Positions 2,073-61,900 of a stretch of DNA of 64,000 nucleotides are shown piece by piece. Within the stretch, counting starts at the first letter, position 1, and every line of letters starts with the position of its first letter. Both the position numbers and the translations under genes were made by a program. The notes under the pieces were generated by a model. That model was not told the origin of the DNA, ran no database searches, and saw only the letters and a program-made list of their open reading frames with translations. This DNA is from Patescibacteria group bacterium (GTDB lineage Bacteria > Patescibacteriota > JACPGU01). The stretch spans positions 160-64,159 of the forward strand of contig JAQULF010000003.1 of NCBI GenBank assembly GCA_028718745.1. Reading direction: 5' to 3'.

Positions 2073-3083
2073 TTACGCAATCTGCAATTGTTCCTGAAAA
2101 CTTCTTTTCTCCCGTTTTTCTATATCCATAACAGTTATAAATAAATCGGGCTTCTCATCTATTTCCCTCAATCTCTTCTCGGAAATCTTTACATATTTTT
2201 CATTTACATCAATGCCAATATAATTTTTCCCTAATTTCTTCGCCGCCATAGCGGTCGTCCCACTACCGACAAAAGGATCTAGCACAACTGCATTCTTTGA
2301 AAAAACCGACAATTTAATTAAATATTCGCAAATTGCTAATGGCTTAACAGTTTTGTGATCATTATATTCTCCTTTTTCTTTTTTGGTTGGTTTCGGCAAT
2401 AAAAAAGTTTTATCTATCAACTCATTGATGCTTTCAACAGTAAATACATTAGCAGGATACATATTATCATCGCCAATCCTTACATTAGTATTGAATAATC
2501 CCACTTCATATTTGAGCATATTATTGAGATATGTTTGACTAGTAGGTTTTTGCGCCATTGCTATAGGTTCGAAACATGATTTTATCTGCGGCGTTTTCCA
2601 GCCACTTAACTTTTCTTTAATTTCTTCTTTATCTTTTTCATCAGCATTCATTTTATTAATGAAATGGTCAACTCCCATCGCCTTAGCTTGATTTTGAGTG
2701 TAAAGCCACATGAAAGAGTCTCTGATTTCAAAACCGGCATCATCAATCGCTGAGGCCATTCTGTGATATAACCTTGGACTAGAAAATGAAAAGAAAAAAC
2801 CTCCGGGCTTTAGAACTCGGAAAATTTCTTCCGAGATTTTTAAATACCAAGTGTAAAATTTTCTACCCTGTTCTCGATCAAATTTCATGCCAGCCGGAAG
2901 CGATGTTACAACTTGCTGATTATTTTGATTCGACACTTCGTCATAATCCCAATTATTATCCAGTTTATCTAAAAAATATGGGGGGTCTGTCAAAACAACA
3001 TCGATAGAATCATTTTCAATTTGAGATAATAATTCCAAGGCATCACTGCAAATTATATTGTTTAAAAATTTACTGTTTTTCAT
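2073..3083 (-). CDS. Type II DNA methyltransferase, beta-class (N6-adenine or N4-cytosine)
   Basis: Motif IV VVLTDPPYF near the N-terminus and motif I VVLDPFVGSGTTAMAA near the C-terminus (IV-before-I order = beta-class amino-MTase); overlaps the upstream ORF by ATGA. Confidence 0.8.
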   Translation of the reverse strand: MKNSKFLNNIICSDALELLSQIENDSIDVVLTDPPYFLDKLDNNWDYDEVSNQNNQQVVTSLPAGMKFDREQGRKFYTWYLKISEEIFRVLKPGGFFFSFSSPRLYHRMASAIDDAGFEIRDSFMWLYTQNQAKAMGVDHFINKMNADEKDKEEIKEKLSGWKTPQIKSCFEPIAMAQKPTSQTYLNNMLKYEVGLFNTNVRIGDDNMYPANVFTVESINELIDKTFLLPKPTKKEKGEYNDHKTVKPLAICEYLIKLSVFSKNAVVLDPFVGSGTTAMAAKKLGKNYIGIDVNEKYVKISEKRLREIDEKPDLFITVMDIEKREKRSFQEQLQIA

Positions 3084-6337: not shown

Positions 6338-8026
6338 TTACATTTTTTCTCTCGCTTCGATTCCCATCAAAGCAAGGCAATCTTTTAAAACGACCTCGGT
6401 CGCTTTTATTATTTTAAGGCGAATAGCTTCTCTCTCATCGCCGATAATTCGGCAATTATCATAAAATTTATGAAATTCAGTCGCAATCTCATGCGCGAAA
6501 AATGGGATTTTATAAACCTGATAATTCTCACCCACTTCTTTAATTAACTCCGGGTATTGGGAAAGTTTTTTAATTAAATTAATTTCGTATTTAAAATTTT
6601 GATTTTGGAGTGACGGACGATAGTCCGTTATCTTTCCTGTGACAGACTTTCGTCTGTCATTCCGATTAATCTTCGAGAGTACGCTATGTATCCTAGCTGA
6701 CGCATACTGAACATAAAATACCGGGTTCCTCGAGCTCTGCTCTTTTGCCAAATCCAAATCTATATCAATATGATGCCCATAATCTTTTGAAATGAAAAAG
6801 TAGCGGGCTGATTCTAAACTCATCTCCTCCGCTGCTTCGCGAAGAGTGATGAAATTCCCCTTTCTCTTGCTCATCCTGACTTCCTTGCCGCCCTGCATGA
6901 GATGAACCAGTTGAAAAATGATTAAATCCAGTTTGCCTTCATGCTTTAAAATTTTTGCGACAGCTTGCAATCTCCCCACATAACCATGATGATCGGCTCC
7001 GAGAAAAATAATAATTTTACCAAATTTTCGTTGTGAGAACCTTTCATAAAGATAAGCGACATCCGACATTAAATAAGTGAAATTACCATCGGTCGTTTTT
7101 ACTACGCGATCTTTTTCGTCGCCATATTCGGAAGTTTTCAACCAATAAGCTCCTTCGTTTTCATAAACCAGATTCTTGGCTTTAAAAAAATCCCACATTT
7201 TATAAACCAGTTTCTCTTTGAAAAGGATTGATTCGGTAAACCAGCGATCAAACTTGATCCCGAGAAACTTTACATCTTTTTTTATAAATTCATCGAGAAT
7301 TATTTTCGCCGCCATCTCTCCTGTTCTCTCATAGTTTCGCCTGATCCATTCAATTCCTTTTTGCTTTTTTATTTTTCGCGCCACTACATCAATATATTCT
7401 CCGCCATAAATGTCTTCGCCTTCCACTGTTTCGATTTCTAAATCCAAATTTTTATAAACTGACTTAGCTAAAATTTTAACCTGATTTCCGGCATCATTCA
7501 CATAATACTCGCGTTTAATATTATAGCCGTTTTTTGCCAAAACATTCGAAAGCGTATCACCGGAAAATCCTCCCCTGCCGTTTCCAAGAGTTAATGGTCC
7601 GGTGGGATTGGCGGAAATGAATTCAACTTGAATTTTCTTCTCCTTGCCGGAATTATTTGAACCATACTTGCTTTTTTCTTTTAAAATGTTGCTTAATTCT
7701 TTCAAATAAACTGATGAATTTAAAAAGAAATTGACATATCCGTCGCAAGCCTCAACTTTTGCGATTTCTTTGGCGGGCGTTAAATTTAACGCCCCTACGA
7801 TTTCGCCGGCGATATCTCTTGGATTTCTTTTTAACTGTTTAGCGAGAATGAACGATATATTCGTCGCAAAATCTCCATACCCCTCCCTCTCCGGCACAGA
7901 AATATCGTATTGATCAATTTCAACTTTGAAAAGTTTTTTGACAACCTTATCGATTTGTTTGCGAAGTAATTCTTTCATGGTATTTTTATAGAGGATCCTT
8001 TCTCCACTTGTCTTTAGCAAATTCAT
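6338..8026 (-). CDS. argS: Arginine--tRNA ligase
   Basis: Class I HIGH-like region SANPTGPLTLGNGRG, Arg-tRNA synthetase core FLGADHHGYVGRL, MSKRKGN (KMSK-like), C-terminal DALR-type anticodon-binding region; contains a 23-aa in-frame insertion encoded by a REPIN-like repeat (see findings). Confidence 0.9.
   Translation of the reverse strand: MNLLKTSGERILYKNTMKELLRKQIDKVVKKLFKVEIDQYDISVPEREGYGDFATNISFILAKQLKRNPRDIAGEIVGALNLTPAKEIAKVEACDGYVNFFLNSSVYLKELSNILKEKSKYGSNNSGKEKKIQVEFISANPTGPLTLGNGRGGFSGDTLSNVLAKNGYNIKREYYVNDAGNQVKILAKSVYKNLDLEIETVEGEDIYGGEYIDVVARKIKKQKGIEWIRRNYERTGEMAAKIILDEFIKKDVKFLGIKFDRWFTESILFKEKLVYKMWDFFKAKNLVYENEGAYWLKTSEYGDEKDRVVKTTDGNFTYLMSDVAYLYERFSQRKFGKIIIFLGADHHGYVGRLQAVAKILKHEGKLDLIIFQLVHLMQGGKEVRMSKRKGNFITLREAAEEMSLESARYFFISKDYGHHIDIDLDLAKEQSSRNPVFYVQYASARIHSVLSKINRNDRRKSVTGKITDYRPSLQNQNFKYEINLIKKLSQYPELIKEVGENYQVYKIPFFAHEIATEFHKFYDNCRIIGDEREAIRLKIIKATEVVLKDCLALMGIEAREKM
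6604..6665. repeat. REPIN-like paired-hairpin palindromic element, copy 1 (inside argS coding sequence, in-frame)
   Basis: tttggagtGACGGACgataGTCCGTta ... tGACAGACtttcGTCTGTCattcc: two hairpins in inverted orientation, same family as copies at 27936, 36685, 37084 and 43165. Confidence 0.7.
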
Positions 8027-8534
8027 TTTGTATTATTACATCTGCATATATTTGGTCGCCATTCTCTATTTTTACATCTGGTCTGGAAATAAGGACATGA
8101 AGATCAACCTTAGAAAGTGGGAGACCGACTAAACTGGCCGCTTTTTGTAATTGATAATTCTCATTATCACGATATCTTTTTATTGCTCCCTCTAACTTAT
8201 CGGTTGGCATATCACCAGGGCTTGAGCCTGCCCCAAAAATCACAACGCCACCGTCTTTTATTTCATCTGGAACAGAAAAGCGCTGGAGCGAATCATAATC
8301 ACTAATCAAGTATCGAGGAATTTTTTGTTGTGAGTATTCCCTGCTCAATCTTTGGCTAAGAGTGGTTTTGCCTACATCCCAATCATGCGATGCCGGTCCC
8401 GCAATAGTAACTACAACAAAGTCTCGCTCGGCAAGAAGTGCTTCGGTTTTTTTAATTATTTGTTCTACGCCCTTTTCAAAAGGATATTCCCTCTTTTCTA
8501 CTATAGGTGTTATTTTTTCTTGAAATTCTTTCAT
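7986..8534 (-). CDS. Hypothetical protein with degenerate P-loop (possible nucleotide kinase-like)
   Basis: VVVTIAGPASHDWDVGKTTL resembles a Walker A with an insertion; overlaps the argS start by 41 nt; no confident family assignment. Confidence 0.35.
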   Translation of the reverse strand: MKEFQEKITPIVEKREYPFEKGVEQIIKKTEALLAERDFVVVTIAGPASHDWDVGKTTLSQRLSREYSQQKIPRYLISDYDSLQRFSVPDEIKDGGVVIFGAGSSPGDMPTDKLEGAIKRYRDNENYQLQKAASLVGLPLSKVDLHVLISRPDVKIENGDQIYADVIIQNEFAKDKWRKDPL

Positions 8535-8815: not shown

Positions 8816-10015
8816 TTAGACTTTTATTTTTACAAACTTCCTCTTCCCCACCTGCACAATCATCCCATCATGAATCCCCAGAACTTCTTTCGAATCTTCT
8901 ATTCTCAAATCGTCAATCCTTACCGCACCTTGTTCAACCAATCTTCTGGCTTCGCTTTTGCTAGTGGCTAATTCCAATTTAAAAACTAAATCTACTATAT
9001 TTATATTTTTATCTGAAATCTTTTTTTCTTCCATATCTTGCGGTTTTTCATGCTCTTGGAATTGTTTGTTGAACACTTCGCCGGCTTTTTCGGCTTTATT
9101 ATGATCATAAAATGCCTCGACAACTTCATGGGCCAATTTGAATTTGATATTGCGCGGATTTTCTCCTTTTTTCATAGCATCCGCAAACATTTTTATTCCT
9201 CCGTCCGGAATATCGGTCAAAAGCTCAAGGCCGGGCAAAATCATTCCATCCGTCCAGCTCATTACCTTGCCAAACATTTCCTCGGGTGAATCAGAAAGCG
9301 CAATAATGTTTCCTTCGGTCTTACCCATTTTCTTTCCTGTCGGATCTTCCAGAAGTTTTGTCGTTATTACAAACTTTTCTTTGTTCAGCATTTTTTTCAT
9401 CAAGGTTCTGCCGGCCAACATGTTGAACATCTGATCATTGCCACCAATTTCACCATCAACATCCATGGTGACAGAATCGTAAGCCTGAAAAACCGGATAT
9501 ACAAATTCATGAAGATAAATTTCTTTTCCTTGCTTGATCCTTTCCTGAAACATATCCCGCTCCAACAATCTTGAAACTGTAAAATGAGACATTAACTCCA
9601 ACATGTCTACCGGCTTTAATTTATTGGTCCATTTCTCGTTATGCAAAAAACGAATATTCGTTTTTTTAAAATCCAAAATCCGGCCGATTAGCTTTTTATA
9701 ATCCTTGGCATTTTCCAAAACCTGTTTTCGGGTTAATTTGACCCTGGTGGCCGTTTTATCCGTTGGATCACCTATTTGGGCGGTAAAATCCCCAATCAAA
9801 ACGATAACTTTGTGTCCGAGATCTTGAAATTCTTTTAACTTTCGCAAAGGAATGGAGTGCCCAATATGAATATCTCCCGTCGGATCAATCCCCATATATA
9901 TGGTTAGTTTTTTCCCAGATCTTAATTTCTCCTCCAAAAACTCTCGGGTGGGAAATATATTTTCCACTCCCCTATTTAATAAATGCTGAATTTTCGCCTC
10001 ATCAATTTTTGCCAT
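8816..10015 (-). CDS. tyrS: Tyrosine--tRNA ligase
   Basis: HIGH motif GIDPTGDIHIGH, KMSKS-like KMGKT, C-terminal S4 domain (RRLVEQGAVRIDD). Confidence 0.9.
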   Translation of the reverse strand: MAKIDEAKIQHLLNRGVENIFPTREFLEEKLRSGKKLTIYMGIDPTGDIHIGHSIPLRKLKEFQDLGHKVIVLIGDFTAQIGDPTDKTATRVKLTRKQVLENAKDYKKLIGRILDFKKTNIRFLHNEKWTNKLKPVDMLELMSHFTVSRLLERDMFQERIKQGKEIYLHEFVYPVFQAYDSVTMDVDGEIGGNDQMFNMLAGRTLMKKMLNKEKFVITTKLLEDPTGKKMGKTEGNIIALSDSPEEMFGKVMSWTDGMILPGLELLTDIPDGGIKMFADAMKKGENPRNIKFKLAHEVVEAFYDHNKAEKAGEVFNKQFQEHEKPQDMEEKKISDKNINIVDLVFKLELATSKSEARRLVEQGAVRIDDLRIEDSKEVLGIHDGMIVQVGKRKFVKIKV

Positions 10016-12790: not shown

Positions 12791-12800
12791 AAAAATTCAA

Positions 12801-12832
12801 GGGGACTCCACAGGAGTCCCCTTTTTGTTATA
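12801..12832. terminator. Bidirectional intrinsic terminator between PBP1A (+) and the secreted-protein gene (-)
   Basis: GGGGACTCC-acag-GAGTCCCC followed by TTTTTGTT on plus and by a T-run on minus. Confidence 0.6.
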
Positions 12833-12858: not shown

Positions 12859-13716
12859 TCACTTCTTTTTTTTGGTTGTGGCGGTTTTGACGGGAATCTT
12901 CACTTTAACCATAGCCAGAGTGTTGGACCATTCCTGACCGCTCATCGTTCCCATCATGTGCGGCCGTCCATTGGCATTGAGTTTGGGCGAGTTTTTGTCT
13001 GGCACATCTTCGCCATTAATATCATACCTCATGGTACCGCGAAGATATGTGCCCCCTTTTTGAACATCCACAACAGTGAGTTGTGCAATCCGCCCAAAAT
13101 GTCCCAACCTCTCACTTCCCAACCGTTTTATTCCCTTACTGCAATCGCACCGGTTCCCAGCCTTATCGACAGGCCACGATGCCATACTAGCAATACGGAT
13201 ATCACAGGCGATGAACTTGTCGCCGACTTTTACATCGACATCCGGCGGGTAAAGTTTGCAGAGCGGTGCCTCCGTGTTGGCATAAACGCAGAAAAAAATA
13301 TCCGGCGATGTTTCCATTACATAGTAATAAGGTAGATGCCGCATTCCGTTCGGAGATGGAAGCCGCGGATTATCTATGCGGCTGTAAATCGTAACGCTCT
13401 CATTTTCTCCTCCCCAGGTCTTCTGGAAATCCGCCACGATGCCGCCCCTTTTCATAAAAACGAAGGGTGCTTGGCAAACGGTTCCTTCTTTGTGTTCGTA
13501 GTATTGCGAGTATTCGCACAACACCGGCCGCTCAAATTCCTCAAAAAGCGACGGGTATTCCGGTGAGACAGCGACCATCTCCCCATTCACTTCTTCGAAG
13601 TTAAGCTGGCCGATAGCGACCGGCGGATGAAGCGTTTTGGCGGTCGAGACCGCCGGGATTGCAAACAGAGCCGACAGCACTGCCACAACGATCAAGCTGA
13701 TCTTTGCGTTTTTCAT
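12859..13716 (-). CDS. Secreted Cys-rich hypothetical protein (start re-called at MKNAKISL...)
   Basis: Signal peptide MKNAKISLIVVAVLSALFAIPAVSTA preceded by GGAGG RBS; 8 Cys; lies in GC-rich (~50%) island; the tracked ORF start at 13863 is probably an upstream extension. Confidence 0.45.
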   Translation of the reverse strand: MKNAKISLIVVAVLSALFAIPAVSTAKTLHPPVAIGQLNFEEVNGEMVAVSPEYPSLFEEFERPVLCEYSQYYEHKEGTVCQAPFVFMKRGGIVADFQKTWGGENESVTIYSRIDNPRLPSPNGMRHLPYYYVMETSPDIFFCVYANTEAPLCKLYPPDVDVKVGDKFIACDIRIASMASWPVDKAGNRCDCSKGIKRLGSERLGHFGRIAQLTVVDVQKGGTYLRGTMRYDINGEDVPDKNSPKLNANGRPHMMGTMSGQEWSNTLAMVKVKIPVKTATTKKKK

Positions 13717-13932
13717 GAGTTGACCTCTTCCTCCGGGCTCGCCGGATATTTTGTTTTGATTGGTAAGATGCTTTATCTCACGGGCGTATTGCCATACGCC
13801 CCTACAAAGTATATTTTGGCTTATTATACAAGGTTTTTTGAAAGAATGCAAGAGAGAAATCAAATAGTTATATACTAAGAAAAAAATTATAAAAACCTTA
13901 CTAAGAGTTTTTATTTATAAAAAACACCTCTA

Positions 13933-17150: not shown

Positions 17151-17182
17151 AGAGCCCCCGGGTTCCGGGGGCTCTCTTTATG
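17151..17182. terminator. Bidirectional intrinsic terminator between convergent genes
   Basis: AGAGCCCCCGG-gtt-CCGGGGGCTCT perfect 11-bp stem, followed by CTCTTTAT on plus and by a T-rich run on minus. Confidence 0.6.
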
Positions 17183-23326: not shown

Positions 23327-23410
23327 TGGCCGAAGTGGGGGTCGAACCCACATGGTATTGCTACCACACGATTTTGAGTCGTGCGCGTCTGCCAGTTCCG
23401 CCATTCGGCC
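23327..23410 (-). tRNA. tRNA-Leu (anticodon CAA), class II with long variable arm
   Basis: Minus strand GGCCGAA-TG-GCG-GAACTGGCAGA-CGC-G-CACGA-CTCAAAA-TCGTG-TGGTAGCAATACCAT-GTGGG-TTCGACC-CCCAC-TTCGGCC-A; 7-bp acceptor, 3-bp D-stem, U33, anticodon CAA, 15-nt variable arm; CCA not encoded. Confidence 0.75.
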
Positions 23411-25389: not shown

Positions 25390-27516
25390 ATGAAATCCAA
25401 CATTTTCTCTCCCAAAAGTATCGCCATCATCGGTGCTTCTCCTCACAAAAAGAAGCTTGGTTTTCAAGTTTTAAAAAATGTTATCGATGGCGGATACAAA
25501 GGGAAAATTTATCCAATTAACATTGATCCATCTATCCGTCATATTCAGTCTCATAAATCTTATTCTTCTGTCCTAAAAGTCCCAGGCAAAATCGACATGG
25601 CAGTATTTGTCATCCCGGCCAAATTTGTTCCCCAAGCTCTACAAGAATGTGGGAAGAAAAAAATAAAATTGGCTGTAATAATTTCTGCAGGTTTCAAAGA
25701 AGTTGGCGGTGAGGGCGTTGAACTTGAAAAACAGATTTTGAAAATCGCCAAAAAATCCGGAATAAGAATATTGGGGCCGAATTGCCTTGGTTTTATAAAT
25801 ACTAAAATAAAATTGAACGCTTCTTTTGCCCCTTCAATGCCTTCTGATGGAAATGTTGCAGTGGTATCCCAATCAGGTGCAATTTGTACTGCGATTCTGG
25901 ATTGGGCAAGCAAAAACCACATTGGTTTCTCAAAATTTTTCTCTTTGGGCAATAAATCTGATATCACAGAATTAGACCTTCTCCCCTATTTGGCCTCCGA
26001 CAAACAAACGAGCGTGATAACATCTTATCTTGAAAATGTTGCCGGAAATAATGGCGGTGATGATTTTCGAGGAGTAGCCGAAAAAACTACCCTCAAAAAA
26101 CCAGTCGTAATTTTGAAGGCTGGAATCAGCGAGAAGGGTGCCGCCGCAATTTCATCGCACACTGGATCGCTTGCCGGATCAAATCAAGCTATCTCATCTC
26201 TTTTTAAGCAGAGTGGGGTTATTCGCGCTAATTCTCTTGAAGATCTTTTCGATTATGCAGAAGCTTTTTCTTTGTTGAAAGCTCCAACCGGAAATCGCGT
26301 TGCAATTATTACCAATGCCGGCGGACCGGGAGTTATGACTACGGATGCGATTGAGGGGACAAAATTAGAATTGGCAACTTTAACAAATGAAACCCAAGAG
26401 AAGCTAAAAAAAGTTTTGCCACCGGCGGCGAATATTCACAATCCTATTGACCTCGTTGGAGATGCTGATGATCTTCGCTACAAAAACGCTTTAAACATTA
26501 TTGAAACGGATAAAAATGTTGATTCAATTTTAGTTTTATTAACACCCCAGACTTCCACAAAAATAGAAGCTACCGCTGAATTAGTTTTAAAGAAAATAAA
26601 GAAAAGTAGTAAAACAATTATTCCAATTTTTATGGGAGGCAAAAGAGCTAATCATGGCATTGATATTTTTGAGAAAAATCATTCTGCAGTTTTCGAATAT
26701 CCCGAGCGCGCCGTTAAAGCTTTGGAAAAAATATCTTTCTGCCAATCGTGTGAGATGGGAATACGAAAAATCTACCCACCCAAGATTTTAAAAATAAAAA
26801 AATCAAGGAAAAATAAAGTTAACAAAATTATTGTAGGGGCACGGCGTGCCGTGCCCGAAAATCAACCCACCTTAATTGCTGGTTCAACCGCTGATGAGAT
26901 TTTAAAACAATATGATATTCCGATTTTGAAATCTTCTCTCGCAAAAGCGAGAAGTGAAGCAATCAAAAAAAGTAAAAAAATCGGCTTTCCCGTTGTTTTT
27001 AAAATTGATTCTCCCGATATCATCCATAAAAGCGATGTGGGCGGAGTAATCGTCGGAATAAAAAATGAAAAAGAAGCCGGCGTCGCTTTTTCAAAAATAA
27101 TGTCAAATATAAAAAGGAATGCTCCTCGCGCCAAAATCAATGGCATTATGATTTATGAAATGGTATCCCTTGGAATTGAATTTTTTATCGGAGCAAAAAG
27201 AGACCCGACTTATGGCCCTTTAGTTGGTTTTGGGTTGGGCGGTGTTTTCGTAGAGATTCTCAAAGATGTTTCTTTCCGCCTCGCTCCCCTATCTTACTTT
27301 GACATTGATAAAATGATTGGAGAATTAAAATCTGCAAAAATAATTTCCGGCGCTCGCGGTAAAGGTTCACTGGACAAAAAAGGTATCGTTGATGCGCTAA
27401 TTAAAGTTTCCAATCTCATGATCAACCACCCACAAATTTCTGAACTTGATATCAACCCCCTAGCAGTTTTTGAAAATCGCGTTGTGGCGGTAGATAATCG
27501 GTTAATTATTTTGTAG
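25390..27516 (+). CDS. Acetyl-CoA synthetase (ADP-forming), fused alpha/beta subunits
   Basis: N-terminal CoA-binding (SIAIIGASPHKKKLGFQV), succinyl-CoA-synthetase-like ligase-CoA domain, C-terminal ATP-grasp; ~700 aa as in archaeal/CPR Acd. Confidence 0.85.
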   Translation: MKSNIFSPKSIAIIGASPHKKKLGFQVLKNVIDGGYKGKIYPINIDPSIRHIQSHKSYSSVLKVPGKIDMAVFVIPAKFVPQALQECGKKKIKLAVIISAGFKEVGGEGVELEKQILKIAKKSGIRILGPNCLGFINTKIKLNASFAPSMPSDGNVAVVSQSGAICTAILDWASKNHIGFSKFFSLGNKSDITELDLLPYLASDKQTSVITSYLENVAGNNGGDDFRGVAEKTTLKKPVVILKAGISEKGAAAISSHTGSLAGSNQAISSLFKQSGVIRANSLEDLFDYAEAFSLLKAPTGNRVAIITNAGGPGVMTTDAIEGTKLELATLTNETQEKLKKVLPPAANIHNPIDLVGDADDLRYKNALNIIETDKNVDSILVLLTPQTSTKIEATAELVLKKIKKSSKTIIPIFMGGKRANHGIDIFEKNHSAVFEYPERAVKALEKISFCQSCEMGIRKIYPPKILKIKKSRKNKVNKIIVGARRAVPENQPTLIAGSTADEILKQYDIPILKSSLAKARSEAIKKSKKIGFPVVFKIDSPDIIHKSDVGGVIVGIKNEKEAGVAFSKIMSNIKRNAPRAKINGIMIYEMVSLGIEFFIGAKRDPTYGPLVGFGLGGVFVEILKDVSFRLAPLSYFDIDKMIGELKSAKIISGARGKGSLDKKGIVDALIKVSNLMINHPQISELDINPLAVFENRVVAVDNRLIIL

Positions 27517-27935: not shown

Positions 27936-27997
27936 TTGGAATGACGAACGATAGTTCGTTAATTTGAAAATGACAGACTATCGTCTGTCACTCCAAA
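27936..27997. repeat. REPIN-like paired-hairpin palindromic element, copy 2 (intergenic, downstream of recJ)
   Basis: tttggaatGACGAACgataGTTCGTtaa ... aaTGACAGACtatcGTCTGTCActccaaa. Confidence 0.7.
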
Positions 27998-36124: not shown

Positions 36125-36652
36125 TTATAACTTATATTTTTCTTTTATCATTTTTGCAACTTTCTTTGCGGAAATCTTAGTATTATCTATATTTAAGTTT
36201 TTAACAAAAGGAATCGGTAAAAATAAATTAAATTCTTTCAAACAACTATTTAGTTTTTTGGCTGTTCTTATTTTGCCATGATATTTTCTGGATTCCCCAA
36301 CAACTCTTTTGCATAACTCTTTTTTATCGCTATAAAGCTGGGCGAAACAAATTTTCCCATTATATTTTTTAACCTTTCTTATAACATCCTTCACAAATTT
36401 GTCATCATGATCGCGCACATAACAAAAAGTAAAAATCAGATTAACATTGTTCTTAGCTGCTAACTCTATCATCTCTAATCGAAGTCGCGAGGAAATTTCA
36501 AAAAAGTTTTTTTCGCCAAATTTAAGTACAGAGGTTATTAGATCTACTGTTAGGTGATTATGAAAAACCTTATAACCAGTAAGCTTTGCTAACTCCTTTG
36601 CGACTGTTAATTTTCCCGTTGCCGGCGGTCCATAAATAAAAACTAAGTTCAT
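36125..36652 (-). CDS. P-loop kinase-like protein (AAA_33/CPT-like)
   Basis: Walker A IYGPPATGKLTVA at N-terminus; ~175 aa; inserted within the dcw cluster. Confidence 0.4.
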   Translation of the reverse strand: MNLVFIYGPPATGKLTVAKELAKLTGYKVFHNHLTVDLITSVLKFGEKNFFEISSRLRLEMIELAAKNNVNLIFTFCYVRDHDDKFVKDVIRKVKKYNGKICFAQLYSDKKELCKRVVGESRKYHGKIRTAKKLNSCLKEFNLFLPIPFVKNLNIDNTKISAKKVAKMIKEKYKL

Positions 36653-36684
36653 AAATTTTATTTTAATTCTTTTTTCATTTTATT

Positions 36685-36756
36685 TGACAAACTATCGTTT
36701 GTCACTCCAAAATTCATGATTATCGCATTTGGAATGACGGACGACAGTCCGTTATC
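36685..36756. repeat. REPIN-like paired-hairpin palindromic element, copy 3 (intergenic, immediately downstream of RAYT gene)
   Basis: tGACAAACtatcGTTTGTCActccaaa - 16-nt spacer - tttggaatGACGGACgacaGTCCGTtatc. Confidence 0.7.
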
Positions 36757-36767
36757 TTTTCTTAATT

Positions 36768-37394
36768 TTAATCTTCTATATTTATATCATTCGCGGGATA
36801 ATAATAAAAGCAATCAAACAAAAAATCTTTTCCTCTTTTTGTTAGCCAATGCTTGTAACTGCAAAAATTAAAATTTTCCAATTCCTCAAAATTTTTTACC
36901 AAACCGTGCTTTATTGGATTTTGGTGAATATAATTGAATATCTTAAAGAAATCTCGTTCGCCTCTTATGCAATAATCCCAATACTGATAAAATACTTTTC
37001 TTCCCTCACAATCGTCCATCTTATTTAAAACTCTCGCAATCGAAGAATTCAAACGATTTGCGAAATAGGAAATCTTTTTTTGTTTGACAGCCTTACGGCT
37101 GTCATTCCAAGGATTTTCTAAAAAATCTAGCATACCACTGTTTGTATTTGGAGTGACACCCGTGAGGGTGTCGTCCTCAATAGAGTTTAACTTTAGCAAC
37201 AAATGATAATGGTTTTTCATTATCGCAAAAGCATAAAGTGAAATTCCTAATTCTTTAATTAAGTTGTTAATTATGTTTAAAATTATTCCCTCTCTTCCGG
37301 AAAAATAATTTTTCTTTTCAAAACACCTTGTTGTTAAAAAATAAACTTCATTTTCTAATTCTAAATGAAACGGCCTGTGCTTATTTGATTTCAT
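36768..37394 (-). CDS. IS200/IS605-family Y1 (HUH) transposase, REP-associated tyrosine transposase (RAYT)-like
   Basis: HUH motif NHYHLLL; C-terminal catalytic-Tyr motif NYIHQNPIKHGLV (YIxxNPVkaGLV of Y1_Tnp); HUH-to-Tyr spacing inflated by ~33 aa that are encoded by a REPIN-like element (37084-37176). Confidence 0.7.
   Translation of the reverse strand: MKSNKHRPFHLELENEVYFLTTRCFEKKNYFSGREGIILNIINNLIKELGISLYAFAIMKNHYHLLLKLNSIEDDTLTGVTPNTNSGMLDFLENPWNDSRKAVKQKKISYFANRLNSSIARVLNKMDDCEGRKVFYQYWDYCIRGERDFFKIFNYIHQNPIKHGLVKNFEELENFNFCSYKHWLTKRGKDFLFDCFYYYPANDINIED
37084..37176. repeat. REPIN-like paired-hairpin element, copy 4 (variant with compensatory stem changes), in-frame inside the RAYT gene
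   Basis: ttGACAGCCttacGGCTGTCattccaagg ... tttggagtGACACCCgtgaGGGTGTCgtc; conserved flanks TTGACAG...GTCATTCCAA and TTTGGAGTGAC...GTC. Confidence 0.55.
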
Positions 37395-37395
37395 T

Positions 37396-37755
37396 TTATT
37401 TCCTAAAATCTATCCCACCTGCTTTTTTATTGGTATGCCCGACGCGCTTAACATCCTCAACCGGAAATCTTGTTTCGTATTCTTCCAAAACATCATCGAT
37501 AGCCTTCTGGGAATCGACTCCGCAAATGTGGGCTATTTTTAAAGCAAGAAAAGTAATATCACCAATAAAGTTTTCTACTTCACCCATATTTTCTTTTATT
37601 AACTTTTCCTGTTCTTTAGCGTCCACCCATTTAATTATATTCCAAAATTCTCCAATCTCCTCGCTCATATTAAGCAGGAGATCCTTTACTTCGCTGACAT
37701 TCCCCCATCCCCTTTCCTTATTAAATTTTTCGATTTTGTCCTGTGTTTTTTTCAT
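37396..37755 (-). CDS. MazG-like nucleotide pyrophosphohydrolase domain protein
   Basis: EEIGEFW...DAKEQE...GDITFLALKIAH pattern typical of small MazG/NTP-PPase all-alpha proteins. Confidence 0.55.
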   Translation of the reverse strand: MKKTQDKIEKFNKERGWGNVSEVKDLLLNMSEEIGEFWNIIKWVDAKEQEKLIKENMGEVENFIGDITFLALKIAHICGVDSQKAIDDVLEEYETRFPVEDVKRVGHTNKKAGGIDFRK

Positions 37756-37759
37756 AAAT

Positions 37760-38431
37760 TTATTTTAAGCTTTCTAATATCTTTTCAAATTCTTCTCCAT
37801 ATTTTATTTCAAATTTTTCTAATCTTCCGGTTGCGGGATGGGTGAACTCAATCCGTTTTGCGATGAGCGCAAATCCATTGGTCTTCAATCCTTCAACTCT
37901 ACCGTTATAAAGTTTATCGCCTACAATCGGATGACCGATATAAGCCATGTGAACGCGAAGTTGATGTGTGCGGCCAGTTATTGGTTCTAATTTAACTAAA
38001 GTGTATTCATCCGCAATTCTTTTTAAAGTTTCAAAGTTTGTTACCGCCTTCTCTCCATTTTTTACTACCCATCTTTTTTGGCGAATTTTATAATCTAATC
38101 CAATCGGCGCATCGATGGTTCCTTTTTTCTTATCAAATATCCCGATCACAATCGCATGATAAATTTTTTTAACTTTCTTTTCGCGAAATTGTTGCTCAAG
38201 ATTTTTCTGCGCCTTTTCATTCTTGGCAATTATAACTAGTCCCGAAGTGAATTTATCTAAACGGTGCACCAATCGTAGGGGCACGGCGCGCCGTGCCCCT
38301 ACATTGTTCAAATAATTAATTATATTGTTAGGATTATTGTCCCGCGGCGCATCCACCTCAATCCCCGCCTCTTTGTTTACAACCAAAATGTCAGCGTCCT
38401 CAAAAACTATTTTAACTAAATTATTAATCAT
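37760..38431 (-). CDS. RluA-family 23S rRNA/tRNA pseudouridine synthase
   Basis: Catalytic motif HRLDKFTSGLVIIAKN; contains the perfect 24-bp palindrome encoding GARRAVP. Confidence 0.8.
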   Translation of the reverse strand: MINNLVKIVFEDADILVVNKEAGIEVDAPRDNNPNNIINYLNNVGARRAVPLRLVHRLDKFTSGLVIIAKNEKAQKNLEQQFREKKVKKIYHAIVIGIFDKKKGTIDAPIGLDYKIRQKRWVVKNGEKAVTNFETLKRIADEYTLVKLEPITGRTHQLRVHMAYIGHPIVGDKLYNGRVEGLKTNGFALIAKRIEFTHPATGRLEKFEIKYGEEFEKILESLK

Positions 38432-39598: not shown

Positions 39599-40798
39599 TT
39601 ATTTTTTTATAACTTCCACTATTTTCTCCATATGCATTCCATGCGATCCTTTTACTAAAATAATATCTCCGCTTTTTATATTTTCTTTGACTGAACTGAT
39701 TGCTGATTGAAAATCCGGAAACCAAAATACTTTTCCTTCCATTTTCTTTTCCGCTTCTTGAAAAATGAATTTGGATTCTTCGCCAACCGCAAAAACTAGA
39801 TCAACCTTACCAACCAGCATCTTTCCAATTTCCCGATGAAATTCTTGTGATTTTTCACCTAGCTCTAGCATATCGCCAAGTACCGCGATCTTTCTTTTCT
39901 TATCGCCCAAATTATTCAATGTCTGAATTGCGGCTTTCATGCTCTCCGGGTTTGCATTGTAACTATCATCTATAATCATTGAATCATTTATTCCTTTAAT
40001 CATATTTAATCTTCCTTTTTCCATCTGAAATCCTTCCGCTGCCCAAATACAATCTTCCAGGCTCATTTCACAAATCAATCCGCAGGCAATTCCCGCCAAA
40101 ACAGAATAAATCAGATGTTCGCCAATTATATTCAGATGAATTTTTTTGGATTCTTTTTTATAATGAACAGTAAAATCGATTCCATGAATATCGGATTTAA
40201 TTCCGTCAGCATATAAATCGGCTTTCTTGTTTAATCCAAAGAAAAAGGTCTTTCCTTTATTTCTCTTTTCCATCTCTCTAACATTGGGATCGTCGTAATT
40301 GAGAATCGCCCAACCATTACTATCTAACGCTTCAATCAACATTCCTTTTTCTTGCGCGACATTTTCTAGTGAATGAAAAAATTCAAGGTGCGAACTGGCA
40401 ACACGGGTGATAACAGCGATTTTTGGTTTTATAAATGAAGTCAGGTATTTAATATCGCCAAACCGATCTGCCCCCATTTCCAAAATAGCTTTCTCAAAAT
40501 GAGTTTTTTGAAACACTGATTTTAAAAAACCCAATGAGATATTTTTTATCCAGCCCAAAGGAAACTTTTCAACCTTCAGTCCCAAAAGAGCCGTCGGAAC
40601 GCCAACTTCTTCATTCTGGTTCGCCCTGGTCTTACCAACAGAAAATTTGGAAGATAAAACCTGATAAATCGCTTCTTTGGTGGAGGTTTTTCCAATACTT
40701 CCCGTAATAGCAATGATATCAATTTTATTTCTTTTCAAATATCTGGTCGCAAAACTTTTTAAAATCAATTGATATGCTTTTTTTAATCTTTTCTTCAT
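39599..40798 (-). CDS. murF: UDP-N-acetylmuramoyl-tripeptide--D-alanyl-D-alanine ligase (start re-called at ATG MKKRLKK; track ORF extends to a TTG at 40834)
   Basis: IAITGSIGKTSTKEAI P-loop, Mur ligase domains; TGGTATAAT-like -10 element just upstream of the ATG. Confidence 0.85.
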   Translation of the reverse strand: MKKRLKKAYQLILKSFATRYLKRNKIDIIAITGSIGKTSTKEAIYQVLSSKFSVGKTRANQNEEVGVPTALLGLKVEKFPLGWIKNISLGFLKSVFQKTHFEKAILEMGADRFGDIKYLTSFIKPKIAVITRVASSHLEFFHSLENVAQEKGMLIEALDSNGWAILNYDDPNVREMEKRNKGKTFFFGLNKKADLYADGIKSDIHGIDFTVHYKKESKKIHLNIIGEHLIYSVLAGIACGLICEMSLEDCIWAAEGFQMEKGRLNMIKGINDSMIIDDSYNANPESMKAAIQTLNNLGDKKRKIAVLGDMLELGEKSQEFHREIGKMLVGKVDLVFAVGEESKFIFQEAEKKMEGKVFWFPDFQSAISSVKENIKSGDIILVKGSHGMHMEKIVEVIKK

Positions 40799-40861
40799 AT
40801 CTATATTATACCAAGAAAATGAACTATTCGCCAATTTCCGGGCGCGGGCACCGCGCCCCTA

Positions 40862-40896
40862 CTTAATACTTAATACTTACTACTTACTACTTAACC
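40862..40896. repeat. Heptanucleotide satellite (CTTAATA)x2-(CTTACTA)x2-CTTAACC abutting the ftsI stop
   Basis: Same unit family (phase-shifted TACTTAC) as at 29846 and 32311. Confidence 0.75.
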
Positions 40897-42665
40897 AAAC
40901 CCTTCTCTCTTTTTATCTGCTCTTCCTTCCAAACATCATCCGGTGGTATCTGGTAATAATTCAAAATATTCGCCGCTAATTCTCCGAATATAGGAGCTGC
41001 CGTAGATTCCGCCCAGATTACATCGCGAGGTACATTAATTCTGGTTACAATCACAAAAAGCGGATTATCGGTCGGGCCAAAACCAATAAAGGAACCGATA
41101 AATTTATCTGTTTCGTATCCTCGAAAATCTTTCTTGGGAATCTGCGCCGTACCGGTTTTACCACCAATTCTGTAGCCCTTTACTCGAGCTTGTTTCCCAT
41201 GGCCTCTCTCGGCAACACTAATCATCATATCCGTTATTTCATGGGCTGACTTTTCGCTTAAAACTCTGCCGATCACTTGCGGCTCTACTTTTTCTACTTT
41301 ACCATTTTTATCAATATATTCTTTTACAATATGTGGTTTTACCATCAACCCCCCATTTGCCACCGCGCCCATAGATTGCGCCAACTGAACCTCGGTTGTG
41401 TTAATACCCTGGCCAAAAGACATTGTCGCCAAATCAACCGGTATAGCATCTTCTTGAGGCTTCACGGCGCCCGGAGATTCACCGTCAATTTCAATCCCCG
41501 TTCTTTTGCCAAAACCAAAATTATTTATATATTTATAAAAATTATCCGTACCGGTTTTTTGCGTCATCCAAACCATTCCCACATTATCAGAGTTTTCCAA
41601 AACTTGAGTCATAGTCTCATAACCATAGGGTCTCTTGACACTATTCCAAATAACCGCATCCTGAACCTGAACTTTGGCATCAAAATATTCTCCCGTATCC
41701 GGCGTTACCGCTCCGCTATCGATACCGGCTGTCATCGCGATTAATTTAAAAACCGATCCCGGTTCATAAGCATCGGCTGTCGCCATACATTGGAAAACGC
41801 TATAATCTTTAACTTCCGTATATTTTGCCGGTTCATAAGTTGGAAATTCGGCTAGAGCCAGGATTCCGCCGCTTTTGGGGTCCATCACCACGATTGAGCC
41901 GCTATCCGCTTTATGCTGTTCAACCGCTCTGGCAATAATATCTTCTGCGTAATACTGAATTACATGGTCAATCGTAAGAACTACATCTTTACCATTTTTA
42001 GGTAGCACAACTTTACTATCAGCCACTGTTATCTGGCGACCCAAAATATCTCTTTCGGAAATCAATTTGCCCTGCTCTCCCTTGAGAACATCATTCAAAT
42101 ATCCCTCAACTCCATATTGTCCCTCTCCTTGATTATCGACAAAACCAAGAAACTTTGCCCCCATACTCCCTTCCGGGTAATCCCTGTAGGTTTCGGGAAT
42201 CAAAACAACTCCAGGCAGCTTCAAATCCTCAATCTTTTTGCTAATCTCATCGCTTAGCTTCCTTTTTAAGGGCGGAATATAAACTTTTTTTTCAGAGAGT
42301 AATTGATTGATTTCTCCGGCTGGCATGTCAATTATCGGACCCAGCTTACTAGCTAAGTCAGCCGCATCTTCCACTTGATTAGGAATTATCATTACCGACC
42401 AGAGAGTTTTATTAGTTACTAGGGGAAATTTGGTATCGCTATATATATCGGTAACAAATATCTCCCCTCTGGCCGGCATTATCTTTTCTTCTTTGTATCT
42501 TTGATTGTAGGCTAGCTCTTGGTAGTGGGAATATTTGATAATTTGTTTTTCAAAAAGACGAACTCCGATTATCCCAAAAAGCCCCATCACAACAATAAAA
42601 ACGATAAATATTCTCGCTTTTATATTCCCCTGCTCTTCAATTCTTATATTATTACTCCCCCACAT
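40887..42665 (-). CDS. ftsI: Class B penicillin-binding protein (FtsI/PBP2-type transpeptidase)
   Basis: N-terminal TM, SxxK (GSVFKL), SDN (ENSDNVG), KTGT; dcw synteny. Confidence 0.85.
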   Translation of the reverse strand: MWGSNNIRIEEQGNIKARIFIVFIVVMGLFGIIGVRLFEKQIIKYSHYQELAYNQRYKEEKIMPARGEIFVTDIYSDTKFPLVTNKTLWSVMIIPNQVEDAADLASKLGPIIDMPAGEINQLLSEKKVYIPPLKRKLSDEISKKIEDLKLPGVVLIPETYRDYPEGSMGAKFLGFVDNQGEGQYGVEGYLNDVLKGEQGKLISERDILGRQITVADSKVVLPKNGKDVVLTIDHVIQYYAEDIIARAVEQHKADSGSIVVMDPKSGGILALAEFPTYEPAKYTEVKDYSVFQCMATADAYEPGSVFKLIAMTAGIDSGAVTPDTGEYFDAKVQVQDAVIWNSVKRPYGYETMTQVLENSDNVGMVWMTQKTGTDNFYKYINNFGFGKRTGIEIDGESPGAVKPQEDAIPVDLATMSFGQGINTTEVQLAQSMGAVANGGLMVKPHIVKEYIDKNGKVEKVEPQVIGRVLSEKSAHEITDMMISVAERGHGKQARVKGYRIGGKTGTAQIPKKDFRGYETDKFIGSFIGFGPTDNPLFVIVTRINVPRDVIWAESTAAPIFGELAANILNYYQIPPDDVWKEEQIKREKGLVK

Positions 42666-43164: not shown

Positions 43165-43235
43165 TAGACAGACTGTCGTCTGTCATTCCAAAATTCAGGA
43201 TTAGCATTTGGAGTGACGGACGATAGTCCGTTATG
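43165..43235. repeat. REPIN-like paired-hairpin palindromic element, copy 5 (ftsL-rsmH spacer)
   Basis: taGACAGACtgtcGTCTGTCattccaaa - 12-nt spacer - tttggagtGACGGACgataGTCCGTtatg. Confidence 0.7.
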
Positions 43236-58979: not shown

Positions 58980-61900
58980 TTAATATTTTAAAACCCACCC
59001 GGCATAAATAACATTGGCGCCGCCGGCATAGAGGCTTGGATATTGAGCTTGATTGAGTTCTACCAATTTCACCCATTGACTGCTATCGCCATAGAGTTTT
59101 TGAGCGATCCACTGTAAATCATCACCGGGTTGAACCGTATAAACTCCGTTGCTTGGCTGTTGGGAGGCGGGCTGCTCCGCGGGTGTTGTTGAGGGGGTTG
59201 GTTGGACCGGTTGAAATGTTCCGTCATTGACATTGATTTCCCAGTAAATACCAATATCTTTCATCCAGGTGATGCCGTCGGCAACAGGAGTAAAGTAGGC
59301 TTTGTAATTTCCATTTGTCATCGGCGCCTTAATCGTGAACTGGAATCTCGCGTTCCATCCCGAAATAATTCCAAGTGGTGAAATAGCAGTTGGTCTATTT
59401 TGAGATAACCAATCGGTATTTGCAAATTCACTATTGTAATCTTGCTGCTGATTGCTATTCCCATAGATTGAACCAGAACCAAGACGAACATTATTTTCCC
59501 AAGTAGCTGTGCCGGTATTTTTTACTTCAACCCAAACATTGGCTGTTTCCCCGGGTTTAAGAGTGGTCGGATATGGAGATTGATAAACCAACTCATAATC
59601 ATAAGTTCCTAGCTGTTCTGGCGGTATTGGAGCAAAACCAAGATCATATTTCAAAACCCAGCCTGAATAAAGCGTGTTGGCCCCCCCATCATAAAGACTT
59701 GGAAATTGAGCTTGGTTTAGTTCAACTAACCTCATCCATTTATTAGAATCACCATAAAGATTTTGCGCGATTGATTGCAAAGAATCTCCCGACTGGACTG
59801 TATATTCACCAAGTAAAGGAGTGACTGGCGGCGTAACCGGAGGAATTACCGGAGGAATTACCGGAGGAATAACAGCGCCGGTTTTTAATGTACCAAAAAC
59901 CGCAAAAGTAGAAAAGTGATTTATATGCGCGGTAATTGTATGCGCCACAGTATCCAAAACACTTGGCACCAAAATCCAAATTTTTGCGGTTTCATCCCAA
60001 TAATATAATTTCAATGAGCTTTCATCAAAACTGTTCAGTAATAAATTATTTCCATAAGGTATCGTGATTGTAATATTGCCGTTAAGACTGGTAACTTTTA
60101 CATTGTTTGAAACTAGAAATGCATTGATATCAAATGCGTTTAATAATGATAATCCTAAAGGTGAAGCTGGAGGATTGTTTTCATTGGTTAGCGTTATATT
60201 GATATTCCCATTGATTGTGCCGGCGGGAATATTTACACGAACAGAACCATCGGCTAGAGAAATCGTTCCCCCGCCGGCAGAAGTGATTACTCCTGAACCT
60301 ATAAGTGAAACCGGTTGAGGTGGCGGCGGAGTAGATCCTCCCCCACCTGATGGCGGAGCCGGAGCAATGGTTACTGTGACAGTATATGGCTGAATTGAAA
60401 GATCAGCAGCCGTAACCGTATATATTTGCGGAGTTACAAAGTTGTTAGCAACACCGGAAAGCGGGCTGACTGATGCACCGGTAATTGTGATGGTTGGAAC
60501 GAGTGCAGTTACATTGGTTCCATGAGGAACTGTCAACGCAATCGTATGAGCCGGTTCATTAATTGTAGTCCCACCCACTTGGCCGGGTACGGTAAATGCC
60601 GTAATCGCCTTGTCCGAACTTAAAGGAGGGGTGATTGTCCAAGCATAAGTAGCTGGAGTCGCATCAACATTTCCAAAAGCGTCAATTGCTCTTACATTAA
60701 AGGTATGAGCAGCAACTGATAAACCGGTATAGTTCTTTGGACTTGTACAAGGCGAATAACCACCGGAATCAATCTGACATTCAAAAGTACCTGCTTCGGT
60801 AGAATTAAACGAAAATGAAGCCGAAGTTGAAGAGGTGCTTAGTGGCGGATTGGTTAGAATCGTAGTATTCGGATTTAAAGTATCAATGGTAAATGTGCTT
60901 GCCGACTCAACAAAACTGCCTTGATTTTGAAAAACATCTTTTGCGCGTACGCGAACTTTCATGTTTATATTTTCTTGAAGATTAAAATCAGTTCCCGCAT
61001 CCCAAGAAATAGTCTTATTATTGCCAATAATTTGTCCGCTGCCAACATCTCCGGTCAAGGTAGTAATTGGCACAACCCAGCTAGATGTACCATCGTCTAT
61101 TTCGGCTTCAACCATTATAAAAGCAGTACTATCATCTGTTAAATCATAATAAATTGTAACTATTTTTGATCCATCAGTAGCCTGGGCGGCGGAAACATTT
61201 GAAACAACCGGTTTTTTCACATCAATGGTAATAGCGGAAGAAGTGAAATAACTGCTCGGGTCTACCCCATCGCTGGCTTTTCCTCGTATATAAACCGTCC
61301 CGTTAAAATCACCGAGATCAGCGGCGGCATTCCAAACGAAGGTATAATTATTTCCACTCGGCGAAGTTGCCAAACCGGTAATGCCACTATCATCAGGATC
61401 ACCGGTTGCTTCCGTCATGGTTAACTCTTCCCCCGCAAAAGCGCCGGTTAGAGAATATTGTCGCGAGATAATATCGCACGGGTCAGAATCTGCGTCTGAA
61501 AGAGTGTAAGTAACATCAAAGAAGCCATCATCTGTTTTTTGACTGCCTACAACATTGGTAATTAAAGGAGCTGAATTTCCGCTTGTTGTGGTAACTGGTC
61601 CTATTTCCGTCGCGTTTACCTTGTTTCCAGCCTTATCATATATCCAGATATTAAAGAAATATGGAGTTGAAGCCGTTAACCCTGTAACTGTTGTTGAAAC
61701 CGCTCCATTATAATTTTCAAAACCAAGATTTGCATCGTCTAATTTTGTCCAAGGAATATCTGATTCTGTAACTCCGGCGCTCGTTTTCCTAAATATCTTG
61801 TATTCTTTGAAATTAGTATCCGAGCCGGCTAATCCAAAAGTTAAGCTAGTAGAAACATTGGTAGTGGAATCAGAATCAACCAAATCGCCCGGTGCTATCG

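Follow-up and report, generated by a model that had tools for sequence, protein, structure and literature searches.

GTAG-headed hairpins inside and between genes of a Patescibacteria genome: probable copies of a REP-type mini-element

Short hairpin repeats that begin with GTAG, the GTAG-tagged repetitive extragenic palindromes (REPs), are known from over 80 species in 8 phyla and have been sorted into 24 GTAG families (Di Nocera et al., 2013, PMC3733652). They have stems of 6–13 bp and loops of 2–3 nt, form subfamilies that differ by complementary stem residues, and occur both as single units and as inverted dimers; a minority is intragenic, including copies in several pseudouridine synthase genes, and REP-associated tyrosine transposases (RAYTs) have been proposed to mobilise them (PMC3733652). 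Definitions of REPs emphasise an extragenic location and multiple copies (PMC12306157). REPs and RAYTs have been studied mostly in Proteobacteria and have been treated as extragenic. Here we describe a family of GTAG-headed, GC-rich hairpins in a 64-kb stretch of contig JAQULF010000003.1 (assembly GCA_028718745.1) from a Patescibacteria group bacterium; this whole stretch is called the window below. One palindrome of the family lies in frame both in the gene for an ADP-forming acetyl-CoA synthetase (Acd) and in that for an RluA-family pseudouridine synthase. We consider it likely that this palindrome is a copy of a GTAG-tagged mini-element of the REP type or of its two-unit inverted doublet, the REPIN.

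The palindrome had been noticed in an earlier reading of the window made from the letters alone (the sequence-only reading), which placed it in frame in acd and rluA, and both copies are present in the window sequence. That reading took the Acd copy for a perfect palindrome, but it is a hairpin with a GT loop. Nor is an inserted C what separates the copies, as had been thought: they have the same 24-nt core, GTAGGGGCACGGCG(T/C)GCCGTGCCC, and differ in one loop base (T or C) and in the 3′ flank. The RluA copy, GTAGGGGCACGGCGCGCCGTGCCCCTAC, is a 28-nt perfect palindrome with two heads, GTAGGGGCACGGCG followed directly by CGCCGTGCCCCTAC. Both proteins do contain the same peptide (...IIVGARRAVPENQ... 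in Acd, ...NNVGARRAVPLRLVHRLD... in RluA), but the proposed GARRAVP has to be extended to VGARRAVP, the unit starting 3 nt earlier, at GTAG. A related hairpin reported about 40 nt upstream of murF is there as well, 42 nt from the real ATG at 40798 and with a gene for an ftsI-like penicillin-binding protein (PBP; 40887–42665) on its other side. The idea of a miniature family was sound, although its membership was incomplete: by scanning the window for GTAG followed by a hairpin we found two more copies, one in the gene for arginyl-tRNA synthetase (ArgRS) and one in a leader. The leader copy lies upstream of the probable start (MKNAK...) of the open reading frame (ORF) at 12859–13863, just downstream of a TGTATAAT box.

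The family in the window comprises five elements of 23–24 nt (Table 1) with the layout GTAG-GGGC-inner stem-loop-inner stem′-GCCC. Stems are 8–10 bp long (14 bp in RluA if GTAG/CTAC is included), loops are 0–4 nt, and folding of the elements as single-stranded DNA (ssDNA) gives z-scores of −2.4 to −5.0. Their GC content is about 79%, in a window with 38.8% GC. All five have the GTAG head, as does every copy at related loci, decayed copies reading GTTG or GTAA there. The copies in the window are all single units, and that of RluA, a palindrome of 28 nt, may be seen as a two-headed unit with zero spacer. Our copy count for this genome refers to the one contig of the window; related contigs carry 0–4 copies of the family per ~20 kb. 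Chance was rejected as a source of the family, as the pattern GTAGGGGC-N11-12-GCCC has six matches (the five elements) in the window against 0.00 expected, and a 20-mer core allowed up to 3 mismatches has two sites in the window and no match in 100 dinucleotide shuffles.

In form the elements agree with GTAG REPs and REPINs such as those of the REP-BIME/TnpA_REP system (BIME, bacterial interspersed mosaic element) of Escherichia coli and those of Pseudomonas: GTAG abuts a short GC-rich stem-loop with an 8–10-bp stem and a 2–3-nt loop, stems change in complementary fashion, singlets and head-out inverted doublets both occur, copies are occasionally intragenic, and a RAYT-family gene is nearby. 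They differ from the usual REPs in their host, which has an ultra-small, AT-rich Patescibacteria genome, in two coding copies that stand in place of resident DNA instead of simply adding to it, and in having the identical 24-nt sequence in common with many phyla and with viral contigs, REP families being described as a rule at the level of a species or genus. No relevant literature was found on the palindrome sequence or on RAYTs in Patescibacteria, and GTAGGGGC is absent from the supplements of Di Nocera et al.

Other kinds of small repeat fit less well. The Rickettsia palindromic elements (RPEs) are likewise in-frame palindromic selfish repeats of a reduced, AT-rich genome, and they too encode peptides at permissive sites. 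With a length of about 100–150 bp, RPEs are much above 24 nt. The elements described here are further set apart by their 24–28-nt unit with a GTAG head and by having no sequence similarity to RPEs, for which no link to a RAYT has been shown. In Rickettsia conorii the pseudouridine synthase B gene is among the RPE hosts, and the RPE ends in CGTC, not GTAG (PMC3733652). Miniature inverted-repeat transposable elements (MITEs) and the ends of IS200-IS605 elements share with our family that they are small and non-autonomous, have hairpin ends and are handled as ssDNA by Y1 HUH transposases. We rejected a MITE, since a single 24-nt hairpin stands against a usual 70–300 nt, there are no terminal inverted repeats round a body, and the flanks of no copy contain a duplication. 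The small dispersed repeats (SDRs) of Nostocaceae, which Elhai et al. are said to have described in 2008, are reportedly mobile-looking hairpin repeats of 21–27 nt that are nested in heptamer tandem repeats and occasionally lie in genes. By that description there is a likeness, for our palindrome occurs in Nostoc, Tolypothrix and Calothrix, and the murF copy adjoins a heptamer tandem whose unit contains GTAG on the minus strand and runs into the GTAG head of the element. SDRs have been reported as not found outside Nostocaceae (PMC5861425), unlike the GTAG element, which crosses phyla. An intrinsic terminator was also rejected, as a T-run is absent after all five copies and a terminator scan of 40700–40950 was negative, and so was a known RNA family, a search of the window at Rfam gathering thresholds having returned one tRNA only.

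That these are palindromic insertion elements tolerated in coding DNA, as the sequence-only reading proposed, is supported by orthologues without them. From the Acd orthologue L126 precisely the 24 nt are missing, which makes a clean indel of 8 codons rather than of the 7 residues foreseen. At the RluA site we find a replacement and not a pure insertion: in place of the NYLNNVGARRAVPLRLVHRLD of the window, twenty orthologues with 74–84% identity show NYLKKYFSQKSIFLVHRLD, a KKYFSQKSIF-type segment that is AT-rich and unrelated to the element, and in the DNA 24 nt (AATTTTGATCAAAAAAATATTTTT in L121) have been replaced by 30 nt, a net gain of 6 nt. The same net gain of 6 nt is seen in ArgRS, where 24 nt stand in place of the 18 nt (AERLSK) of the L131 orthologue. 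The 21st RluA orthologue (P0022/L122) has another hairpin at this site, with a 16-bp stem (GACAGACGTCCGACGT...), and the contig of a relative, L127, starts with yet another palindrome of the same RluA loop, CCAACGTCGGGGAATTCCCCGACGTTGG. One loop thus holds three different GC-rich palindromes in three related genomes (window 38275–38302; L122 ~9700–9770; L127 1–28). The palindrome seems to break assemblies, for the short-read contigs L127 and L128 have their starts at this site or just beyond it. The Acd copy is common to a clade of orthologues and hence old, while the RluA copy, being lineage-specific, is young.

The Acd site also shows how the hairpin has been kept. A neighbour-joining tree, from which the variable linker with the element was left out, groups the five element-bearing Acd orthologues in a single clade. 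Their elements are GGGCACGGC/GCCGTGCCC in the window, GGGCACGCC/GGCGTGCCC in L123, GGGCACAGC/GCTGTGCCC in L124, GTAGAGGCACGCCGTGGCGTGTCT in L214 and GTAGGGACAAGGCATGCCTTGTCCCTAC in L125. In an ungapped alignment of the five, pairing is complete (45 of 45 cells over 9 pairs), and both sides have changed in 5 of the 9 pairs; shuffling reached the observed values in 0–2 of 500 cases, and slid controls were 27–53% paired. The encoded peptides have meanwhile drifted to VGARRAVP, VGARRGVP, VGAQRAVP, VEARRGVS and VGTRHALSLP. What is conserved at the Acd site is the DNA hairpin, not the peptide. Conservation of the peptide in distant orthologues, which the sequence-only reading had named as evidence against itself, was not found; where orthologues share the segment, the hairpin is kept through non-synonymous compensatory changes. 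This upkeep could reflect selection, palindrome-templated correction or re-copying of the element.

The orthologue series also bears on the possibility that the shared palindrome is a chance similarity or an artefact or chimera of metagenome assembly. The window does come from a metagenome-assembled genome (MAG), and palindromes do break assemblies, L127 starting exactly in one. However, apart from the empty shuffles, the reading frames are intact, the Acd element sits at the same codon position, with compensatory variation, in five independent assemblies from different projects, and the palindrome is found in isolate genomes of Nostoc, Tolypothrix and Iodobacter. We give this explanation hardly any credence; the Acd series already refutes it.

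More weight, though still little, goes to the view that the hairpins are cis-acting RNA or DNA structures under selection where they now stand, and not currently mobile, the shared peptide being a by-product. Possible roles would be those of mRNA stabilisers, of signals for translational pausing or co-translational folding, or of binding sites for gyrase or another protein. Such a role would agree with an Acd hairpin that stayed perfectly paired while 5 of its pairs changed in compensation and the peptide changed too, and with a G.U-type pair in the Acd stem of L214, which pairs in RNA only; REPs elsewhere have been reported to act as RNA elements (PMC3733652; PMC12306157). It would also agree with the three different hairpins in one RluA loop, and with the promoter-like −35 and extended −10 that lie directly downstream of the intergenic murF copy. 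On the other hand, the element is absent from the Acd of L126, P0128 and P0129, the site in L121 holds an AT-rich stretch of 9 codons that does not fold, and the site has decayed in the more distant orthologues L212 and L213 to AT-rich remnants with a hint of a hairpin left, all without a sign of compensation. Compensatory change in quasipalindromes can moreover arise by template-switch correction in the absence of selection. Neither T-runs and terminators after the copies nor an Rfam match were found, and in other phyla the palindrome stands in unrelated contexts. For these reasons we regard a purely resident structure as improbable, and return to a REP-type mini-element as the preferred explanation.

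Units of the family have moved between loci. The inner stem ACGGC is present at both the Acd and the RluA site in this genome only, whereas orthologous Acd sites elsewhere have other stems. A 55-nt head-out doublet, GTAGGGGCGCAATTCATTGCGCCC-GATAAAA-GGGCGTGATAAATCACG(C/T)CCCTAC, is shared by L122 and L123, following the stop codon of RluA in the former and that of Acd in the latter. The 28-mer found at the Acd element site of L125 recurs in the Acd gene of L214, at a second position some 290 nt farther on. Under the REP-type explanation the unit would be of 24 nt, GTAG plus a 20-nt GC-clamped hairpin (GGGC-N5-N2-N5′-GCCC), and it would be mobile singly or as an inverted doublet of two units. 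If E. coli TnpA_REP may serve as an analogy, HUH/tyrosine enzymes of the RAYT family would copy or move the units as ssDNA hairpins, and the copies that survive would be those that landed in permissive segments: before the ATP-grasp part of Acd, in the RluA loop that precedes HRLD, and in a segment of the N-terminal domain of ArgRS.

What we see of the host proteins is in keeping with the last step. The Acd insert falls between domain matches in a stretch without Pfam coverage, just before ATP-grasp_5. The RluA insert falls in the loop before the catalytic HRLD motif, where the aligned E. coli RluA has a gap; residues 41–50 have a mean pLDDT of 60 and make up the lowest-confidence coil of the AlphaFold model. 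The host proteins match those of a Patescibacteria group bacterium MAG at 100% identity, and the nearest named relatives are from candidate division CPR3 (CPR, candidate phyla radiation). All three coding copies use the frame GTA-GGG-GC., which gives V-G-A, and a GTAG unit is 8 codons long and open in five of six reading frames. We suggest that coding copies are tolerated because of this length, the openness of the frame used and the permissive protein segments; their survival through permissive landing sites is partly shown and partly inferred. Acd and RluA both read VGARRAVP since they share the inner stem ACGGC, since the RluA copy is a true palindrome, and since both are in the GTA-GGG-GCA frame. 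A special preference for the GARRAVP frame was considered and rejected, as intragenic copies elsewhere divide about evenly between VGAR.AVP and RGTA.RAP frames.

A candidate for the moving enzyme is encoded in the window itself. The protein of the RAYT-like ORF (locus tag PHU42_01760) matches the NCBIfam profile NF047646, named 'REP-associated tyrosine transposase', with an E-value of 1.1e-18 and 67.6 bits (below the curated cut-off of 80) over profile positions 5–142 of 146, and the Pfam profile Y1_Tnp with 28.1 bits (cut-off 23). Among PDB entries it matches E. coli TnpA_REP (4ER8) best, with NYIHQNPIKHG aligned to DYIYINPVKHG in the region of the catalytic tyrosine. The HUH motif (NHYHLL; H62-Y63-H64) and the tyrosine (NYIHQNP; Y155) are invariant in an alignment of 34 sequences, and judged from its sequence the gene is apparently intact. 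Most of its 75 homologues are from Patescibacteria, one of them named RayT by the Joint Genome Institute (JGI). A 70%-identical homologue stands in the same RluA-RAYT-MurD order in L127/L128, while RluA directly abuts MurD in L121. The family-A copy nearest to the RAYT gene is that in RluA, 0.9 kb away.

A second hairpin family, family B, has the form (T)GACAGAC-N4-GTCTGTC(A) and a conserved tail, A(C/T)TCCAAA, or TTTGGA(G/A)T as a head on the other strand; the family may also be written as a GGAGT or GGAAT head followed by GAC(A/G)GAC-N4-GTC(Y)GTC. It is probably what the sequence-only reading, which counted the GARRAVP palindromes as a second family, had as its first. Two family-B hairpins make up an insertion of about 35 aa in the RAYT itself, at codons ~70–105, where the protein is variable beyond its HUH motif; a further two, in inverted orientation, follow the gene (Table 1). 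Repeat-like insertions in the same variable segment are also present in P0248 and P0260, and a Dehalococcoidia RAYT ORF (L037) contains the 28-nt GTAG palindrome (2208–2235).

Several observations weigh against a REP-type element served by the local RAYT. By the usual flanking criterion the cognate repeat of the window RAYT is family B, so that the arrangement departs from a REPtron of family A: the gene is flanked by a GGAGT-headed family. The proximity of the RluA copy has about a 14% chance expectation by our own estimate. Family B flanks the RAYT on both sides in L129 and L130, which hold the closest CPR3 RAYTs; GGAGT-headed flanking hairpins occur in most of the 36 best-matching of 80 metagenomic RAYT relatives; and GTAGGG-headed hairpins lie within 5 kb of the RAYT in only 3 of the 80 loci, for which reason we rejected GTAGGGGC hairpins as the flanks of the window's RAYT clade. 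Three of the five window copies are intragenic, in frame in essential genes, unlike REPs as defined by their extragenic location. Neither a target-site duplication nor a conserved target is seen at the copies, and the replacement of resident DNA in RluA and ArgRS is no signature of simple cut-and-paste or copy-in.

Family membership by form, the polarity of insertion, the upkeep of the hairpin, movement between loci and an apparently intact RAYT in the window are shown. Because the flanks of the window's RAYT carry family B, the enzyme that moves the GTAG family is unproven, and the RAYT as mover, and the choice of RAYT, are inferred. It is possible, but in our judgement somewhat doubtful, that the GTAG family is an orphan here, moved by another RAYT elsewhere in the genome, by phage-borne enzymes or by a short-patch copy or replacement process like that reportedly proposed for cyanobacterial SDRs, while the local RAYT serves only the GGAGT family. 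Family B, and not family A, flanks and invades CPR3 RAYT genes, and the near-equal-length replacements (24 to 30 nt in RluA, 18 to 24 nt in ArgRS), the palindromes in viral contigs (see below), the second type of RAYT locus in relatives and the few RAYTs of the same family with GTAGG- or GTAGT-headed flanking hairpins (L147, L161–163) would all suit an orphan. Against this, no second RAYT is visible in the window, and the heads GTAGG and GGAGT might be alike enough for one enzyme to serve both. A REP-type mini-element, probably handled by some RAYT-family enzyme, remains the explanation that we favour. An ORF upstream of that for ArgRS (7986–8534) was tried as a second, degenerate RAYT gene and discarded, as it has no similarity to one.

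The second type of RAYT locus is represented by P0246, a protein of 160 aa that is about 50% identical and N-terminally truncated and is encoded directly upstream of ArgRS in L131 (10001–10483). L131 and L213 belong to one JGI contig (Ga0116154_10000240), in which ~36 kb contain no GTAGGGGC hairpins and the Acd site has an AT-decayed hairpin. From the truncation of P0246 and these decayed repeats, loss of RAYT function may perhaps be tied to decay of the repeats.

The palindrome is not confined to Patescibacteria. An exact-pattern scan with one genome per species found it in at least 120 genome stretches, among them Acidobacteriota, Chloroflexota, Planctomycetota, Nitrospirales, Omnitrophota, Poribacteria, Gemmatimonadales and Coxiellaceae, and, among the matches listed, to which the following counts also refer, in Nostoc, Tolypothrix and Iodobacter isolates, in Calothrix and in an archaeal (Methanosarcinales) MAG. 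The loci have unrelated flanks and GC contents of 31–69%, and all-versus-all clustering of ORFs from the 120 loci gave no recurrent gene family beside the palindrome. ORFs of at least 600 nt hold 40% of the palindromes as against 80% of random positions, a depletion; 43 of 231 sites are clearly intragenic, those of VGAR.AVP type and of RGTA.RAP type being about equal in number. A RAYT gene is present in 3 of 120 8-kb blocks round the palindrome, where about 0.25 would be expected by a back-of-envelope calculation that assumes about one RAYT per ~4-Mb genome. One of the RAYTs, in the acidobacterial locus L107, scores 88 bits (curated cut-off 80) and lies beside two head-out doublets of the same palindrome, as paired REPs ~140 nt apart, much as in known REP-RAYT systems; another is the Dehalococcoidia RAYT of L037 with the 28-nt palindrome inside its ORF. 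The 24-nt palindrome also occurs in 69 viral contig stretches of IMG/VR (L215–L283), with up to 4 copies per ~10 kb, for example in L252 and L275.

A further 47 GTAG-headed hairpins at these loci have other inner stems, nearly all in the GTAGGGGC...GCCC form, so that the family has the look of a superfamily whose inner stem is combinatorial. It is tempting to see in this one pan-prokaryotic superfamily, GTAGGGGC-N5-loop-N5′-GCCC, with inner stems kept up by compensatory change, spread horizontally and possibly by phages through Patescibacteria, Acidobacteriota, Chloroflexota, Planctomycetota, Cyanobacteria, Nitrospirota, Omnitrophota, an archaeal MAG and viral contigs, and written into or over protein loops as 8-codon short-patch cassettes at RAYT-adjacent hot spots. 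We hold this to be rather unlikely. If true, it would imply a short-patch copy or replacement reaction not yet described for RAYTs, of which the RluA loop would be a hot-spot example.

We regard the element as one of a known kind in an unusual setting. It is less ordinary that the host belongs to the CPR, that so large a fraction of the copies is intragenic, that resident DNA was replaced at nearly equal length at two sites, that one RluA loop holds three different palindromes, and that the 24-mer is identical across phyla. An ultra-reduced CPR genome of 38.8% GC would hold at least two REP-type families together with an apparently intact RAYT, and essential enzymes (ArgRS, RluA, Acd) could retain REP copies as loop cassettes of 8 residues. 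Such elements would account for the unusual GC-rich peptide islands (VGAR.AVP, RGTA.RAP) that are met in proteins predicted from many phyla, besides breaking metagenome assemblies, and the cross-phylum identity of the 24-mer offers a handle on how REP families spread and persist.

Table 1. Hairpin elements of the two families in the window and the genes that carry or adjoin them.
Feature	Position	Strand	Remarks
Family-A element	26833–26856	+	GTAGGGGCACGGCGTGCCGTGCCC; in Acd; 9-bp stem, GT loop, GTAG head; VGARRAVP, aa 481–488
Family-A element	38275–38302	.	two-headed palindrome in RluA; VGARRAVPL, aa 43–51
Family-A element	40840–40862	-	GTAGGGGCGCGGTGCCCGCGCCC; 8-bp stem, 3-nt loop; intergenic, PBP/murF
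Family-A element	7775–7798	-	GTAGGGGCGTTAAATTTAACGCCC; in frame in ArgRS; VGALNLTP, aa 77–84, N-terminal domain
Family-A element	13782–13805	-	GTAGGGGCGTATGGCAATACGCCC; in leader of ORF 12859–13863
Heptamer tandem	40860–40894	-	TACTTAA x5 on +; TAAGTAG/TAAGTAT on -
Acd, ADP-forming acetyl-CoA synthetase	25390–27516	+	708 aa; CoA_binding, Succ_CoA_lig and ATP-grasp_5 domains
RluA-family pseudouridine synthase	37760–38431	-	223 aa; PseudoU_synth_2 domain
ArgRS, arginyl-tRNA synthetase	6338–8026	-	562 aa; one family-A and one family-B hairpin inside
RAYT-like gene	36768–37394	-	208 aa; RAYT/IS200-like Y1 HUH enzyme, by profiles
Family-B hairpin	6640–6659		in frame in ArgRS (NDRRKSVT)
Family-B hairpin	27971–27990
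Family-B hairpin	43167–43184
Family-B hairpin	37085–37104		in RAYT gene
Family-B hairpin	37155–37172		in RAYT gene
Family-B inverted pair	36685–36704 and 36737–36752 (36685–36752)		immediately after RAYT stop

The interval between RluA and MurD (36125–37755), which holds the RAYT gene, also contains a MazG-like ORF (119 aa) and a P-loop kinase-like ORF (175 aa), and none of the three is present in L121. In L122 the gap contains a DUF5672 gene, and L123 has no RluA at this position. The gap is a variable spot in the otherwise conserved division and cell wall (dcw; mur/fts) cluster.

A few further features of the window may be mentioned. Between 12000 and 20000 the GC content is 41–48%, against 32–39% in the flanks, and this part, with genes for a secreted protein of unknown function, a radical-SAM protein, a GNAT acetyltransferase and an NHL-repeat protein, may have been acquired horizontally. 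Two strong GC hairpins without a GTAG head, at 17151–17175 (AGAGCCCCCGGGTTCCGGGGGCTCT) and 12799–12823 (AAGGGGACTCCACAGGAGTCCCCTT), lie in short gaps between oppositely oriented ORFs and look like ordinary bidirectional terminators. A DNA methyltransferase gene (N6/N4; PF01555) at 2073–3083 adjoins a 248-aa ORF without a family match. The single tRNA gene, the sole Rfam match in the window, is at 23327–23410 on the minus strand. A run of GCC/GCCTCC triplet repeats at 51897–51929 encodes a Gly-rich low-complexity stretch in a 1418-aa ORF (50601–54857, minus strand), and very large ORFs are also found at 55039–57849 and 58980–63821.

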